Below, one piece after another: positions 2,264 through 59,473 of a stretch of 64,000 nt of DNA. A program made the translations under genes and the position numbers. The stretch covers positions 169,384,001-169,448,000 of the forward strand of contig OX597816.1 in the NCBI GenBank assembly GCA_951406725.2, in the 5' to 3' direction. The DNA comes from Octopus vulgaris (taxonomy: Eukaryota). How positions within the stretch are numbered: the first letter of the stretch is position 1; each line of letters opens with the position of its first letter. Below the pieces are notes generated by a model. That model was not told the DNA's origin. It worked only from the letters and a program-made list of their open reading frames with translations, and did no database searches.

Positions 2264-2557
2264 CCGTGTTTTCTTTAAATATTTATATCTCTTGAAATTT
2301 TAGCTGGCCAGCTATACTTTCAAGAGATACAAATAATTTAAAGAAAACACGATATATATAGCAATAATAATTCTCTAAAAGAGATATAGACAGTAACTGC
2401 TCGATAACATAAGGGACTAAAGCCATCTGAATATGGCTAGGGACAGGGCAGGGTGGTGTTACTGTTGCATTTAGCCCCAGGCGAACATCGACGTCGCCAG
2501 ATAGGCCCGACACCGTCACGGTGTCCTTTAACCTGCAAAGGGAGATAATTCTCCGAT

Positions 2558-2631
2558 GAAGCGGAAACCACACACGGACCATGGTTTCAAGGTGTATTGC
2601 CTATCGTCAACGTGTGGTAGGCCTCCGCTTC
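2558..2631 (-). ncRNA. Minimal type I hammerhead ribozyme, UUGACGA core
   Basis: CACACG-UUGACGA-U-AGG-CAAUACA-CCU-U-GAAA-CCAUGG-UC-CGUGUG with extended stem I. Confidence 0.75.
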
Positions 2632-2917
2632 CTCGACGAATTCTCACTCTGCAGGATATTCACATATAGATTTTCAAGCAAAATACATTTGCTGATTTCG
2701 AAAATCTGTTCGACAGCAATAATAATTCTCTAAAAGAGATATAGACAGTAACTTCTCGATAACATAAGGGACTAAAGCCATCTGAATATGGCTAGGGACA
2801 GGGAAGGGTGGTGGGGGTGTTACTGTTGCATTTAGCCCCAGGCGAACATCGACGTCGCCAGATAGGCCCAACACCGTCACGGTGTCCTTTAACCTGCAAA
2901 GGGAGATAATTCCCCGA

Positions 2918-2989
2918 TGAAGCGGAAACACACACGGACCATGGTTTCGGTCGTATTGCCTATCGTCAACGTGTGGTAGGCCCCGCTTC
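2918..2989 (-). ncRNA. Minimal hammerhead ribozyme, second tandem copy with altered stem II
   Basis: CACACG-UUGACGA-UAGGCAAUACGACC-GAAA-CCAUGG-UC-CGUGUG. Confidence 0.65.
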
Positions 2990-3067
2990 CTCGACGAATT
3001 CTCACTCTGCAGGATATTCATATAGAAATCTATATATGAATATCCTGCAGAGTGAGAATCCGTCGAG

Positions 3068-3141
3068 GAAGCGGAGGCCTACCACACGTTGACGATAGGC
3101 AATACACCTTGAAACCATGGTCCGTGTGTGGTTTCCGTTTC
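3068..3141 (+). ncRNA. Minimal hammerhead ribozyme, inverted copy
   Basis: Stem I 3083-3088/3123-3128, core 3089-3095, GAAA 3111-3114, CCATGG 3115-3120, predicted cut after 3122. Confidence 0.75.
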
Positions 3142-3578
3142 ATCGGGGAATTATCTCCCTTTGCAGGTTAAAGGACACCGTGACGGTGTCGGGCCTATCT
3201 GGCGACGTCGATGTTCGCCTGGGGCTAAATGCAACAGTAACACCCCCACCACCCTGCCCTGTCCCTAGCCATATTCAGATGGCTTTAGTCCCTTATGTTA
3301 CGATATATATATATATATATATCGTGTTTTGTAATAATATTTTTAACTCCTGAAATTATAGTTGGTGAAATTGATTATACGTACGTTTGCCTATGCAATG
3401 TCCAGGAAGTTTATTCCTCCTTTGTATATCAACTACAGTAAGTCGTTGTGGTATCATATACATGATAAGCGTTTCGTTTGCGCGTTGTTCAGAATGCAAA
3501 TAATACTTTGTGTATAGTATGTTTATGCATACCATGCATAAATACGACCTTTTCACGTAGTACCAATATCATGCTATA

Positions 3579-3980
3579 GTGGAGGCGCAATGGACCAGTG
3601 GTTAGGGCAGCGGACTCGCGGTCATAGGATCGCGGTTTCGATTCCCAGACCGGGCATTGTGAGTGTTTATTGAGCGAAAACACCTAAAAGCTCCACGAGG
3701 TTCCGGCAGGGGATGGTGGTGATCCCTGCTGTACTCATTCACCACAACTTTCTCTCACTCTTACTTCCTGTTTCTGTTGTACCTGTATTTCAAGGGGCCG
3801 GCCTTGTCACACCCTGTGTCACGCTGAATATCCCCAAGAACTACGTTAAGGGTGCACGTGTCTGTGGAGTGCTCAGCCACTTACACGTTAATTTCACGAG
3901 CATGCTGTTCCGTTGATTCGGATCAACCGGAACCCTCATCGTCGTTACCGACGGAGTGCTTCCATTGCTTCCATCCATCC
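3579..3980 (+). mobile_element. tRNA-derived SINE family A, full length
   Basis: A box (tggaccagtggttagg), B box (ggtttcgattccc), (TCCA)n tail, 11-bp TSD atcatgctata. Confidence 0.9.
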
Positions 3981-13399: not shown

Positions 13400-14525
13400 A
13401 AAAATTGTTTTTCTCTTATAATGACATAATTTAAAAGAAAGACCGGTTTCGCGTGTAGCTTTTCAAATTTCTTGCGACGTTATGTTTATGTTGAATAGAG
13501 TTTTCGTTATGTTTATGTTTAGGAGAGTTCTAAGTAAGGGAAGATAGTGAGTGATTTCCGGTGTAAGGGAGATAATCGAAAATTTTTTCCTTTCCCTTGG
13601 TGTGAATTTCTCTGTATCAGTATGTTCGGATGGTTGAGTCTGGGCTTGTACTTTTCAATGAAGAATGTTTCCTTGTTTAGTCTAATTTGTGTTGATGATC
13701 CGAAAGCACATTGGTAAAATGGAAAATTAAAAATTGTGGTAGTATTTGCTTTGCGCATTTCTCAATGTGCTCACTAAAAGGTATCATTCTATATTCTGGG
13801 AATGCAATTTGTTGTCGATGCAGTGTGCATCTACGTCTGAGTGATAGTCCCGTGGAACCCACGTAGTCTTGGTGGCAGCCCGAGCATTTTATGACATAAA
13901 TTATGTTTTCAGAGGCACAAGTAAAGTTAGATTTGATCTTGAATTTCTGTCCCTCTTCAAAGAGGAATTCTGATCCTTCTAGCAGGTTAGGGCATGTTGC
14001 ACAGTTCGATCTACCACATTTTTTTACTTTTGCATCCGTAATTACAGAAGACAATTTTGCCTTTGTGAGAATCTTTTTAGGTGATTTAGGCTGTTTGTAG
14101 CTTTTAATGATTTGGTGTATGTTTAGAATTTCCTTTAATTTGGGGTCTTTATGAAGTATTGGTAAATTCTGGGTGATGATGGTGAAGGCTTCTTTGTTTC
14201 TGGGGTTGTATGTAGATATGTAAGGTAGTATTTTCGGGGAAGGTGTGTTGTTGTGTTGAACTTTTCTTAAAGTTTCTATGTTGATTTCTGTTGCACGTCT
14301 GATCCCATCCTCTATGAGTTGAGCTGGGTAATGTCTGTCAATTAGGGTGTTTTTGAGTTCTTGCAGTCTAAAGTTCCTGGTATTTTGTTCTGACACTATT
14401 GTGCATATCCTTCTTGCAAGGTTGAAGGGGATGTTTGTTTTAGTGTGTCTTGGGTGGCATGAATTAAAAAGAAGGTATTGTTTGGCGTCTGTGGCTTTGT
14501 AAAAAATGTCTGTTTCTATTTTAAG
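13400..14525 (-). mobile_element. Penelope-like element 3' part (RT C-terminus, Cys linker, GIY-YIG endonuclease, pLTR)
   Basis: CGRSNCATC and NIIYVIKCSGCHQDYVGST; frameshift near 13720; 5' end abuts (TA)n. Confidence 0.9.
13435..13473 (-). ncRNA. Minimal hammerhead ribozyme, U3-A8 core, in PLE pLTR
   Basis: AAGAAA-(U)-UUGAAAA-GC-UACAC-GC-GAAA-CCGG-UC-UUUCUU. Confidence 0.65.
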
Positions 14526-38833: not shown

Positions 38834-38886
<53 letters not shown>

Positions 38887-39320
38887 TCGCCATACTAATA
38901 TGGCATTCTTATAAAAATAAGAAAAAAGCTGTCCGCTTATTAGCTCCATGAGGCCATCGCCTTAAGTTAGCTATTTGATACACAAACTGTATCCATATAA
39001 CCTTCGAACAAGGGAGGTCAGTCGCTCCACACTACTTGACCGGCAGCTATATGTTCGAAGGTTATATGGATACAGTTTGTGTATCAAATAGCTAACTTAA
39101 GGCGATGACCTCATGGAGCTAATAAGCGGACATTTTTTCTTATTTTTATAAGAATGCCATATAAGTATGGCGATAACTATTATTTTCCGGGAACGCTGCC
39201 GCTGTTCTCTTTTAGAGAGACTTAGTTATTTTAATATTTCTATTATTGAAAACAAGTGGATGTATTCCACCGAAACTAGGTAAATAAAACCATCGAACAG
39301 AGATTGTCGGAAGCGACACC

Positions 39321-39389
39321 TACTGGCTGGCTACGCTGCATTGAAAAGGGGCAATACCCTGAAACGCGTCTGTAGCTGCCGGTCAAGTA
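39321..39389 (+). ncRNA. Minimal type I hammerhead ribozyme, U3-A8 core
   Basis: GCUGCA-UUGAAAA-GGGG-CAAUA-CCCU-GAAA-CGCG-UC-UGUAGC; predicted cut after 39370. Confidence 0.8.
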
Positions 39390-39682
39390 GTGTGGAGCGA
39401 CTGACCTCCCTTGTTCGAAGGTTATATGGATACAGTTTGTGTATCAAATAGCTAACTTAAGGCGATGGCCTCATGGAGCTAATAAGCGGACAGCTTTTTT
39501 CTTATTTTTATAAGAATGCCATATTAGTATGGCGATAACTATTATTTTCCGGGAACGCTGCCGCTGTTCTCTTTTAGAGAGACTTAGTTATTTTAATATT
39601 TCTATTATTGAAAACAAGTGGATGTATTCCACCGAAACTAGGTAAATAAAACCATCGAACAGAGATTGTCGGAAGCGACACC

Positions 39683-39751
39683 TACTGGCTGGCTACGCTG
39701 CATTGAAAAGGGGCAATACCCTGAAACGCGTCTGTAGCTGCCGGTCAAGTA
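39683..39751 (+). ncRNA. Minimal type I hammerhead ribozyme, second identical copy
   Basis: Same sequence 362 bp downstream; predicted cut after 39732. Confidence 0.8.
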
Positions 39752-39963
39752 GTGTGGAGCGACTGACCTCCCTTGTTCGAAGGTTATATGGATATAGTTT
39801 GTGTATCAAATAGCTAACTTAAGGCGATGGCCTCATGGAGCTAATAAGCGGACAGCTTTTTCTTATTTTTATAAGAATGCCATATTAGTATGGCGATAAC
39901 TATTATTTTCCGGGAACGCTGCCGCTGTTCTCTTTTAGAGAGACTTAGTTATTTTAATATTTC

Positions 39964-40000
<37 letters not shown>

Positions 40001-41134: not shown

Positions 41135-41474
41135 ATATATATGCGCGTATGTAGACAAAAAGTTATGTACATATGTTAATATATATAAGTGAACAGATAT
41201 ACTTGCATATATAGTTAGTATTGTATACGCAATTGAGAACATACCAAATGCTTTAGCTCACAGACGCACACACATGCGCACCTGCGCACCTTCGCTCATG
41301 CCGACATATAAATTTGCACAGACATGCAGATATATTGTATTAAACTTTCCTCTGCATTTGTATTATTCAGTTTATATAAACTTCTGCAGTGTTCTTTTTT
41401 TCTTTTCTATTTCTCCAGATATTAATTTAACTGCTATATGGAAAAGACACATTGCAGATTTCAGAAAAAAAAAA

Positions 41475-42309
41475 ATGATGAATTTATCGGAAAAATATAT
41501 TGTGCTAATAATTATATTTCTTGGCCAATACGCAAGGCGTTGCACAGTGAACGAGCAATCATACGAATTTGCAAATATTACAATGGATGGTGATTACATA
41601 ATAGATTTTGTTCTTTCAATCCACGAAGGAAACCGTCCGGATGAAGATACTGTCATCAGCGTTGATAATGTAGTAGCCGTTGAAGCAATAATTTCAGCCA
41701 TCGAATATATTAATGAGGATGCCTCACTTTTGTCTAATGTGTCTCTTGGATATGTGATTCATGACGATTTCAACAGCCCGCAGCAAGTTTCTGCAATAGC
41801 CATGAAGCTGTCACAACGTATCCTGTCGAACAGTTTATTGACTAGTGGGTATCAGCTCTGTCCGAATAAGAGTAATGGTTGTAGTCAATCAGAAGCAAAC
41901 TTTTCCATTGTTACCGAGTCACACTCTTTCAGTAACGTTAACATTACACAAAGCACAAATTCAGACAATAAATTGAGTAATGAAAACGACGTGGAATTTA
42001 GCGAGAAAAATTACTATAATGACGATGCAAAGGATACTTCAATTTCTCAAAAGCCCGTTGTTGCTGTTGTAGGCAGCAGCACGAGCGATACCACAGTAAG
42101 TTTAGCAATGAATTTGCAGCTGCTCGGCATACCCATTGTCGGGTGTATGGCAACAAGTAACGTTTTCCAGCGATGGCTTTATTTTCCAAATTTCATTCGA
42201 GTGGTTCCGTCTGACAAATTTCAAGCCCAAGCAATCTTTGACATCATTGTCTACTTTGAATGGAGCTACATCTTCGTACTTACGTCTAACAATTATTATG
42301 GACTGGAAG
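41475..42309 (+). CDS. First coding exon of a class C GPCR (mGluR/CaSR-like Venus-flytrap domain)
   Basis: Signal peptide, MDGDYII, VEAIISAIEYIN..LLSNVSLGYVIHD, VVAVVGSSTS, FIRVVPSDKFQAQAIFDIIVYFEWSY, YYG; acceptor ttctccag at 41418, donor G|gtaaat at 42309/42310. Confidence 0.9.
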
Positions 42310-42419
42310 GTAAATATGAAAGCAGAATTTACACACGCTTTGCATTAATAAATCAAAATGTTGTTTTTATGTTATGTTATTTAGCAGTGTTTATTTTATT
42401 TCTTATTCTTTTATTGTTA

Positions 42420-42641
42420 TATTTGTTTCAGTCGTTTGACTGCAGCTATACTGGAGCACCGTCTTTAGTCGAACAAATCGCCCCCAGGACTTTGTAAGCC
42501 TAGTACTCAATCTATCGGTCTCTTTTGCTGAACCGCTAAGTTACAGGGACGTAAACATACCAACATCGGTTGTCAAGCGATGGTGGGGGGACAAACATAG
42601 ACACACAAACACACACACACACGCACGCGCGCACACACACG

Positions 42642-46871: not shown

Positions 46872-47912
46872 AGGCAGCGAGCTGGCAGAATCGTTCCCAC
46901 GCCGGGCAAAATGCTTAGCGGTATTTCGTCTACCTTTACGTTCTGAGTTCAAATTCCGCCGAGGTCGACTTTGCTTTTCATCATTTCAGAGTCGATTAAA
47001 TAAGTACCAGTTACGCACTGGGGTCGATATAATCGACTCAACCCGTTTGTCTCCCCTTGTTTGTCCTCTCTGTGTTTAGCCCCTTGTGGGTAGTAAAGAA
47101 ATAGGTATTTCGTCTGCAGTTACGTTCTGAGTTCAAATTCCACCGAGGTCAACTTTGCCTTTCATCTTTTCGGGGTCGATAAATTAAGTACGAGTTACGC
47201 ACTGGGGTCGATGTAATCGACTTAATCTGTTTGTCTGTTCTTGTTTGTCCCCTCTATGTCTAACCCCTTGTGGGTAATAAAGAAATAGTTATTTCGTCTG
47301 TCTTTACGTTCTGAGTTCAAATTCCGCCGAGGTCGACTTTGCCTTTCATCCTTTCGGGTTCGATAAATTAAGTACGATTTACGCACTGATGTCGATTACA
47401 TCGACATAATCCCTTTGTCTGTCCTTGTTTGTCCCCTCTATATTTAGCCCCTTGTGGGCAATAAAGAAATAAGAAACGTTAGCACTCCGGGCGTAATGCT
47501 TAGCGGTATTTCGTTTGTCTAGGGTGGTGTAACTGGCAGAATCGTTAGCACGCCGGGCTAAATGCGTAGCCGTATTTCGTCTGCCGTTACGTTCTGAGTT
47601 CAAATCCCGCCGAGGTCGACTTTGCCTTTCATCCTTTCGAGGTCGATAAATTAAGTACCAGTTATGCATTGGGGTCGATATAATCGACTTAATCAGTTTG
47701 TCTGTCCTTGTTTGTCCTCTCTGTATTTAGCCCCTTGTGGCTAGTAAAGAAATAGGTATTTCGTCTGTCTTTACGTTCTGAGTGCGAAATCCGCCATGGT
47801 CGACTTTGCCTTTCATCTTTTCGGGGTCGATAAATTAAGTACTGAGGTCGACCTAATCGATTGGCTCCCTCTCCAAAAATTTCGGGTTTTGTACATGGAG
47901 TAGAAAAGAATA
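46872..47912 (+). mobile_element. Family C SINE cluster with ~5 tandem core units
   Basis: ~185-bp unit gtatttcgtc...aaagaaatag repeated. Confidence 0.85.
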
Positions 47913-58217: not shown

Positions 58218-58606
58218 TACCCGCCGAGCTTAAGCATATTGCTAAGCGGTGGAAAAGAAATAAACCAGGATTCCCTAAGTGATGGCGAGTGAACCGGGAG
58301 AAGCTTAACACGGAATCTCGTCGGCCGCGCCGGTCCTCAAGAGCTGTGGCGCAAGGTTCGTACACGGTCGATCGTTTCACCCTGCTAGGTTCGGAGTCCC
58401 CTCGATCGGAACTGCCAGAGCGGGTGCTAGGCCCGTTTGGAGCCGGAGGCGATCGGCGACGTTCTTCGGTCCGAGAGTCAGGCTGCTCGGAAACGCCGCC
58501 CAAAGCGGGTGGTTAGCTCCATCTAAGGCTAAATACGGTGAGAACTTCGATAGCCGACAAGTACCGCGAGGGAAAGTTGAAAAGAACTTTGGAGAGAGAG
58601 TTCAAG
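58218..58606 (+). pseudogene. 28S rRNA 5' end/D1 fragment
   Basis: acccgccgagcttaagcatat...gcgagtgaa...caagtaccgcgagggaaagttgaaaagaactttggagagagagttcaag. Confidence 0.9.
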
Positions 58607-58612
58607 TCTGCT

Positions 58613-58706
58613 TTCGACTCGGACGAGACTACTCACGGAACTCCAGCATATCACTAAACGAAGGAAAAGCAACCATCCGGGATTCCCTAAGTAACAGCGA
58701 GTGAGC
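58613..58706 (+). pseudogene. Second, more diverged 28S rRNA 5'-end fragment
   Basis: gacgagactac...agcatatcactaaacgaaggaaaag...ggattccctaagtaacagcgagtga. Confidence 0.75.
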
Positions 58707-59473
58707 AATCTGACGGCTGACTGAAAAGAAAAAAAATTAGGAAAAGCCAAAATGTTATTGTGCAGCTTTGTGATGCTAAAGAAACTCTTGATATAGTAAT
58801 TAGCGTAGGAGCTTGAAGGTGGAGTGAGAATACGGCGGAAAAGGAAATGAATTAAATTAATGTAGCGAATACATTTGGGCGGACTTAATATGCAAACAGT
58901 TATCTTAAAAGATCAGAAACTCTTGTAGTTGTGGCAGAGAAGATAAGGAAGAGAAATAAGTTTACATACTATTAAATGTCAAAACAAGTTTCTTCTAGTT
59001 TACAATGTTCATAGTTTTTCCAATTGACATTAATGGGAAGAAACACTTCAAGACTCAAAATAAAATAAAATTACGCTCCTTGTAAAATGTCTGCTTTTAA
59101 GTCTAAAGAAAAATTCAAAGTGTGATTTTTAATATCTTCTTGATTGTGACTGTATTTTTAAATCATTTTCTAAATCGCAAGACGTCTCAAGCAATATGAC
59201 AATTGCAGCTGGTTTTTGCAATCATTTCTTTGCTGTCATTGTTATTTCATTTTTGGCTTCTCTGACATGAGTACATTATGTAACACACATTAACTTTACA
59301 TGTCCGCTTGTATCTAAACCAACGGAATGCTCTTAGCATATTTTTTATGTATGTATGTATGTGTGTATGTATGTATGTATGTATGTATGTATGTATGTAT
59401 GTATGTATGTATGTATGTATGTATGTATGTATGTATGTATGTATGTGTGTGTATGTATGTATGTATGTATGTA

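Follow-up and report, generated by a model that had tools for sequence, protein, structure and literature searches.

Within the window, i.e., the whole 64-kb stretch of DNA analysed here, three hammerhead-type motifs lie close together, with cores starting at 2610 and 2969 on the minus strand and at 3089 on the plus strand (Table 1). All three cores read U3-U4-G5-A6-C7-G8-A9 and thus carry the U3·G8 wobble reported by the first-pass annotation. A pattern written from these very motifs and from two further ones at 39 kb gave five matches in the window and none in any of 100 shuffled versions of it. A relaxed generic hammerhead scan returned the same five motifs, with 3 hits in total over 20 shuffled windows. 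The predicted cleavage nucleotides C17 are at 2577, 2937 and 3122, and the two minus-strand sites delimit a cut-to-cut unit of 360 nt (2577-2936), in keeping with the spacing noted earlier. Each motif consists of a helix I of 6 bp, a helix III of 2 bp with a palindromic loop and a GUC triplet; helix I is prolonged into a rod, which folding of the studied unit predicts with P ~0.95, so that the rod-like stem I and palindromic stem III of the initial description are both recovered. The copies are not equivalent. In the middle one, the 3′ strand of helix II is changed and each arm of the rod has single-base gaps; a U·U at positions 10.1/11.1, at the base of helix II, is found in copies 1 and 3. 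Over ~260 nt, pairwise comparison of the copies gives 3-4 mismatches and 5-11 gap columns.

Table 1. Features of the hammerhead repeat locus and of the related loci in the window; offsets (+) are counted along the unit from the cut site.
Feature	Position	Strand	Remark
Left 12-bp direct repeat, likely target-site duplication, ending in (TA)n	2349-2360	+	Longest direct repeat across both junctions
Unit u1, one full unit, 3′ end at +221	2361-2714	-	
44-nt tail, on the tandem arm, absent from the inverted arm	2361-2404	-	Arm ends +221 vs +177
13-nt hairpin, identical in the 39-kb family at the same offset (+198)	2372-2384	-	
Hairpin just upstream of the inverted-arm end point, common to the 39-kb family (+145/+148)	2422-2437	-	
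Hammerhead copy 1, type I; core 2610-2604, 3-bp helix II	2569-2618	-	Predicted cut 3′ of C17 2577
Unit u2, 5′-truncated tandem copy, several private indels	2715-3028	-	
Hammerhead copy 2; core as copy 1, helix II altered to 2 bp	2929-2977	-	C17 2937
Inverted 5′-truncated arm u3, 3′ end at +177	3026-3299	+	Forms the 2760-3300 foldback with u2
Hammerhead copy 3, like copy 1	3081-3130	+	C17 3122; antisense-paired throughout in a read-through transcript (predicted)
Right 12-bp direct repeat, then (TA)n	3300-3311	+	Junction comparison
5′-truncated Penelope-like fragment (RT thumb, CxxC linker, GIY-YIG) beside (TA)n	13434-14525	-	~10 kb from the locus
Homologous 362-nt family, U3-A8 core, same tandem-plus-inverted layout in (TA)n	38880-39969	.	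Comparison locus

Read in the sense of the ribozyme, the inverted arm u3 stands head to head with a minus-strand partial tandem made of u2 and u1. The insertion thus comprises 1.86 tandem units plus an inverted arm of 274 nt, both RNA-sense 3′ ends facing outward and lying 44 nt apart in unit coordinates. The near-perfect palindrome placed earlier at 2757-3300 is borne out at 2760-3300, where the two strands are 96% alike (262 identities, 5 mismatches, 7 gap columns). The direct repeat that encloses the whole structure consists of TA repeat in 9 of its 12 letters, with TA tracts on both sides of the insertion, and is therefore only moderate evidence for a target duplication. This repeat, the 44-nt tail and the U·U of copies 1 and 3 had escaped the first-pass annotation. 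A second locus of the 360-nt family was not found in the 64-kb window.

Since all three copies lie inside this one direct repeat in (TA)n, they represent a single insertion rather than three witnesses, and the U3 that they share counts once. The previous argument that three copies with U3 prove a family trait consequently fails, also because the family turns out to be mixed (see below). As to the private differences of u1, two substitutions are reversed in essentially all contigs of the sequencing runs described below and a 6-nt gap is filled in several; none of the letters peculiar to u2 and u3 occurs among the variants reaching at least 5% in the contigs of four runs. The most economical explanation is three copies that were identical when inserted and have decayed since. 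Of a non-coding repeat of 360 letters that is abundant, the locus is most likely a single, ageing copy.

Three further observations concern the surroundings. Both arms end within a few bases of one unit position (~+265 to +272), in a short AT-rich palindromic stretch (window 3010-3040); this shared stop may be a strong reverse transcriptase (RT) stop, the 5′ end of the RNA or an annealing point. An older inverted repeat of ~55 bp (2257-2360 and 3314-3365, 81% alike) surrounds the insertion, which occupies its TA centre, and 2257-2358 is itself a hairpin of that older unit, of which the window holds no further copy. Finally, two copies of a SINE-like repeat (629-998 and 3581-3964), 96% complementary, are inverted around the locus.

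Kinship with the 39-kb repeat and with retrozymes

The first-pass annotation had described the locus as a second 360-bp hammerhead family, otherwise unrelated in sequence to the one at 39 kb yet matching it in unit size and architecture. It is indeed a 360-nt hammerhead repeat in tandem plus foldback, but a homologue of the 39-kb family: the 360- and 362-nt cut-to-cut units align end to end with z 6.8, or z 5.2 once the ribozyme is removed, and 0 of 500 shuffles reach either score. Loop 2 and the two hairpins of Table 1 are common to both units. The match in size and layout is inherited. At the 39-kb locus the arms end at ~+172 and ~+235, leaving a tail of ~62 nt. The first nucleotide of its inverted arm (38880-39049) falls at +1 to +3 relative to the predicted cut, which is what a ribozyme-cut template would give, although this is a single locus.

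Copies 1 and 3 have the layout of a type I hammerhead, with three helices, the open end at helix I, an A15.1-U16.1 pair and a NUH triplet, whereas copy 2 retains only a 2-bp helix II. On the other hand, the consensus core C3-U4-G5-A6-N-G8-A9 with a Watson-Crick 3-8 pair, as written in PMC7151607, is replaced by the U3·G8 version in 3 of 3 copies. In Rfam, no hammerhead family matched the studied motifs at E values up to 10, and the U3-A8 motif at 39 kb was also missed; descriptor or Rfam searches thus overlook this locus. Matches to miRNA families were rejected, being far below the gathering scores and reflecting only a hairpin.

As regards the unit, it is a tandem non-coding repeat within the ~150-450 bp of retrozymes and contains one type I motif. 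It closes on itself at 354-355 plus 0-1 letters in 4 of 4 runs, and the longest ATG open reading frames round the circle encode 35 amino acids in the sense and 58 in the antisense direction. The circular monomer is predicted to fold at -110.6 kcal/mol with 62% of its nucleotides paired (z -3.7 against 100 shuffles), the self-pairing expected of a retrozyme. Retrozyme repeats are also present in many copies, and here 1160 and 591 contigs match the unit in two DNA-type runs, with summed depths of up to 9e5, a figure that is not a copy number. On these structural grounds we call it a putative retrozyme-type element with a variant motif that departs from the consensus core.

The metazoan non-LTR retrozymes of PMC7229834, e.g., those of mussel with 350-390 bp, are likewise tandem non-coding repeats with one type I hammerhead per unit, and the present element resembles them in its length of 360 nt, its GC content of 46%, its self-paired monomer and a likely target duplication longer than 4 bp. 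The motif HHR_Amex2 of axolotl Rtz353 has the same U·U at the base of helix II and the same 2-bp helix III with a tetraloop (PMC7229834). The locus differs from these retrozymes in its U3·G8 core (C3-C4 in the main subfamily of run X1, see below) and in having an inverted arm and a tail; the word "inverted" is absent from the available text of PMC7229834. Concerning natural cores, U3-A8 (as in the 39-kb family), U4C and U10.1·U11.1 have all been described as tolerated variants (PMC3088659, PMC4209133). The nearest case to an uncompensated U3·G8 comes from a saltern and is cited in PMC7151607; this motif combines U3 and G8 with an insertion of 2 nt. Within the literature searched, mostly texts other than subscription papers and supplements, we found no uncompensated U3·G8 dominating a high-copy repeat subfamily. 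Similarly, searches on octopus and cephalopod hammerheads gave no description of this family, and the main text of a 2026 paper on Octopus vulgaris repeats contains neither "ribozyme" nor "retrozyme". Pattern scans of viral and of metagenome contigs gave no locus.

Core letters across the family

The unit is present in 20 of 24 listed sequencing runs, from 11 studies and 5 organisms, and core letters were taken from four of these runs. Letter shares are summed contig depths, with one DNA-type run per organism (X1 for organism A, X2 for organism B). In X1, the best-matching run and possibly from the source of the window itself, positions 2610 and 2609, i.e., 3 and 4 of the core, change together to C at a depth of 101078/104853 (96%), while the same positions are changed in only 1161/49206 and 1170/53272 (~2%) in X2. 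The depths at which positions 3 and 4 change are the same or almost so, and the canonical C3-U4 combination is thus close to absent in both runs, the linkage between sites being read from these equal depths plus four small contigs. The core depth of X1 is ~1/8 of its peak, so that divergent copies may be under-sampled.

Many other copies likewise have U3·G8, and the family also includes a C3-C4 subfamily. The earlier view of U3 as a family trait is accordingly correct in that it is not the decay of one locus, since U3 makes up ~98% of the core depth in X2, but it does not extend to the whole family, the share in X1 being ~4%. A consensus with C3, which had been named as the outcome speaking against that view, is what X1 displays, always together with C4, whereas U3 dominates X2. 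The odd core pair therefore marks a subfamily and not the family.

Much of the rest of the motif is constant: for G5, A6, G8, A9, helix II, loop 2, GAAA and the triplet, no alternative letter reaches 5% in any of the four runs. Position 7, in contrast, varies freely (U in 49% and 93%). The loop of helix III changes from AU to UA in 69604 of ~97000-102000 (~70%) in X2 and in 13% in X1; this swap consists of two transversions and retains the palindrome needed for a double hammerhead. The studied locus combines both types, being X1-like in the loop and at 2403, 2508 and 2515, and X2-like at U3-U4, 2545, 2658 and 2662. Two of the runs may be RNA by guess, and C3-C4 is the core of the main contig in each (7.6/7.6 and 26.5/30.8). 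One of these contigs, that of X11, is 390 nt long and self-closing, but the same joint occurs in DNA-type runs and the contig thus shows no circle. No RNA run is found among the listed holders of the unit (24 rows). RNA editing was considered as the origin of the core changes and rejected, no signature being seen: 25 of 40 variant rows are transitions, spread across all four kinds.

U3-A8, U3·G8 and C3-G8(C4) cores therefore coexist in related elements. Given that U3-U4 is also found in the 39-kb sister family, parsimony, rather than a tree, places U3·G8 as the older state and C3-C4 as derived. It is conceivable, though we consider it unlikely, that this records a natural compensatory walk at the 3-8 pair, from U3-A8 through the U3·G8 wobble to a C3-G8 pair gained only together with C4, each step being amplified to high copy. 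Were this so, retrozymes would have been selected for a throttled or protein-assisted ribozyme, and U3·G8 would be a functional natural core not described before.

Predicted activity of the ribozyme

Low activity has been reported for all single changes in the CUGA/G8 region (PMC9901934). The literature searched, for PMC9901934 passages of the main text, gave no measured rate for U3·G8. The cleavage triplet is taken up by G5-A6-C7 in the predicted ground state (pairing p 0.97-0.98); in these calculations, restricted to secondary structure, the minimum is more stable than the fold of two monomers by 15.5 kcal/mol and than the double hammerhead by 16.8 kcal/mol. When the transcript of the whole locus is folded, u2 pairs with u3 and u1 is left partnerless; a read-through transcript would thus bury two of the three motifs in a duplex of ~270 bp. 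Together, the low activity of single changes, the predicted competing folds and the u2/u3 pairing suggest that the studied copy is likely silent as a ribozyme.

Insertion footprint and alternative readings

Penelope-like elements insert as partial tandems with an adjacent inverted, 5′-truncated copy, a one-sided tail of 30-40 bp and a bias for (TA)n (Craig et al. 2021, 10.1101/2021.04.23.441226). The locus has the partial tandem, the adjacent inverted 5′-truncated copy and the (TA)n target, and its one-sided extension measures 44 nt. The foldback is thus the usual footprint of a Penelope insertion and not a separate feature. With these elements, including PAc (PMC11167929), the locus further shares the presence of a hammerhead in the repeat; it differs from them in the length of the tail, in an extended rather than minimal hammerhead and in lacking the RT plus GIY-YIG open reading frame of an autonomous Penelope. 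In vitro, a Penelope protein cuts AT-rich DNA and extends both strands, starting at two internal sites on the RNA whose spacing equals the tail; hammerhead mutants still insert (PMC11167929), and Naiad elements spread without hammerheads (Craig et al. 2021). A Penelope link of retrozymes was proposed in PMC7229834 and supported by Li, Clavereau and Pollet 2026 (10.64898/2026.07.22.740005). The latter suggest the same partnership from co-occurrence in vertebrates and homology of terminal repeats, whereas here the basis is the insertion footprint, not homology to a Penelope repeat.

The window itself holds a Penelope-like fragment (Table 1). Searching with this fragment, 105 of 953 candidates match at E values up to 0.001, many of them with RVT_1 and/or GIY-YIG. 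The studied unit has no significant likeness to it, and the 39-kb unit matches it only weakly, over one stretch of low complexity (E 0.01, from a tiny search). Downstream of the fragment, a U3-A8 hammerhead-like motif with a palindromic helix III and one extra base before the core was seen by eye at ~13466-13441; the relaxed generic scan did not pick it up.

Overall, we consider it quite probable that the locus is one insertion of a 360-nt non-LTR retrozyme, that a Penelope-like RT/endonuclease likely placed it in a TA tract, and that this copy self-cuts weakly or not at all. A staggered cut would have left two 3′ ends, which may both have served as primers, reverse transcription starting for each end from its own fixed position inside the RNA (+221 and +177); this two-point comparison covers two loci, the present one and that at 39 kb. 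The two cDNAs would have stopped near +270 and then been joined head to head. As both cDNAs ran through the cut site, we infer that the template was a circle or an uncut multimer. Strong catalysis would not be needed for the spread of the family. Some data fit less well: the direct repeat is mostly TA, the tails (44 and ~62 nt) exceed the published 30-40 bp, the Penelope fragment in the window has no significant match to the unit, and selection on the helix III palindrome, seen in one event, argues that the fold still matters.

How much the hammerhead contributes is a matter on which two readings of the family diverge. U3·G8 could be a working, slow ribozyme, rescued by dimer formation, by loop 1-loop 2 contacts or by the Penelope protein, with the subfamily making 360-nt circles; we regard this as plausible, somewhat short of an even chance, and at the level of the family it is compatible with the Penelope-written insertion preferred here. 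It accounts for a motif in which neither DNA run has a variant of 5% or more except at positions 3, 4 and 7 and in the loop swap, and for the fact that the swap, which keeps the palindrome, separates the locus from the main X2 type while both have U3. Precedents are HHR_Amex2, which cuts as a dimer in spite of the same U·U and 2-bp helix III (PMC7229834), a Penelope hammerhead that needs protein for cutting (PMC11167929) and the saltern core with U3 and G8 (PMC7151607). The low activity of single changes in this region (PMC9901934), the predicted pairing of G5-A6-C7 with the triplet, with active folds 15-17 kcal/mol above the ground state, and the finding that 8 of 9 predicted Xenopus retrozyme dimers remained uncut in vitro (10.64898/2026.07.22.740005) weigh against it. 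Alternatively, the hammerhead of the family may be catalytically dead and kept as a fold or protein-binding handle, tandem transcripts being copied uncut, which we hold to be rather doubtful. Neither main core is canonical, and the insertion of hammerhead mutants and the spread of Naiad point the same way (PMC11167929; Craig et al. 2021), as does the fact that all arm segments here cross the cut site, as opposed to the U3-A8 inverted arm beginning next to it, with one locus for each. Against it, G8, A9, G12-A15.1 and the cleavage triplet are constant, and C4 variants are active enough for viroid infectivity (PMC3088659).

The remaining readings concern what the locus is. That it is the terminal-repeat stump of an autonomous Penelope and not a separate non-autonomous element appears improbable: as a rule, Penelope copies are 5′-truncated and partly tandem and have inverted arms (Craig et al. 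2021), and an origin of retrozymes from repeats of this kind has been proposed (10.64898/2026.07.22.740005), but the unit closes on itself at ~360 nt in every run analysed, has no open reading frame of that kind, and bears a long helix I rod and a helix III instead of the minimal motifs typical of metazoan Penelope repeats (PMC4209133). A later DNA rearrangement or an assembly artefact as the source of the foldback is very improbable. In its favour, assemblies often go wrong at palindromes, the indels of the middle copy are clustered and reach 5% in none of the runs, and the site is the centre of the older inverted repeat; against this, the arms differ from each other (5 mismatches and 7 gap columns), have different fixed ends, and are mirrored at a homologous locus 36 kb away. 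Finally, the foldback as a small-RNA source or editing substrate adopted by the host is hardly to be expected, since the sister locus shows the same layout as an insertion by-product and the miRNA-family matches noted above reflect a hairpin only, even if a read-through transcript would form the ~270 bp duplex on which such a role could rely.

This family makes two questions about animal retrozymes directly testable, namely if their spread depends on the ribozyme and which agent mobilises them. It combines naturally amplified non-canonical cores in one scaffold (U3·G8 and C3-C4, plus U3-A8 in the homologue) with ends that record where RT started and stopped.

Other features of the window include tandem arrays of a dispersed repeat of 183-184 bp at 1420-1881 and 46920-47471, and an isolated 5′ fragment of large-subunit rRNA at 58220-58924 on the plus strand, right after an (AT)n tract. 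An open reading frame at 41274-42497 (plus strand) encodes a receptor ligand-binding domain (PF01094, E 7e-26) and is probably an exon of a class C GPCR-like gene.
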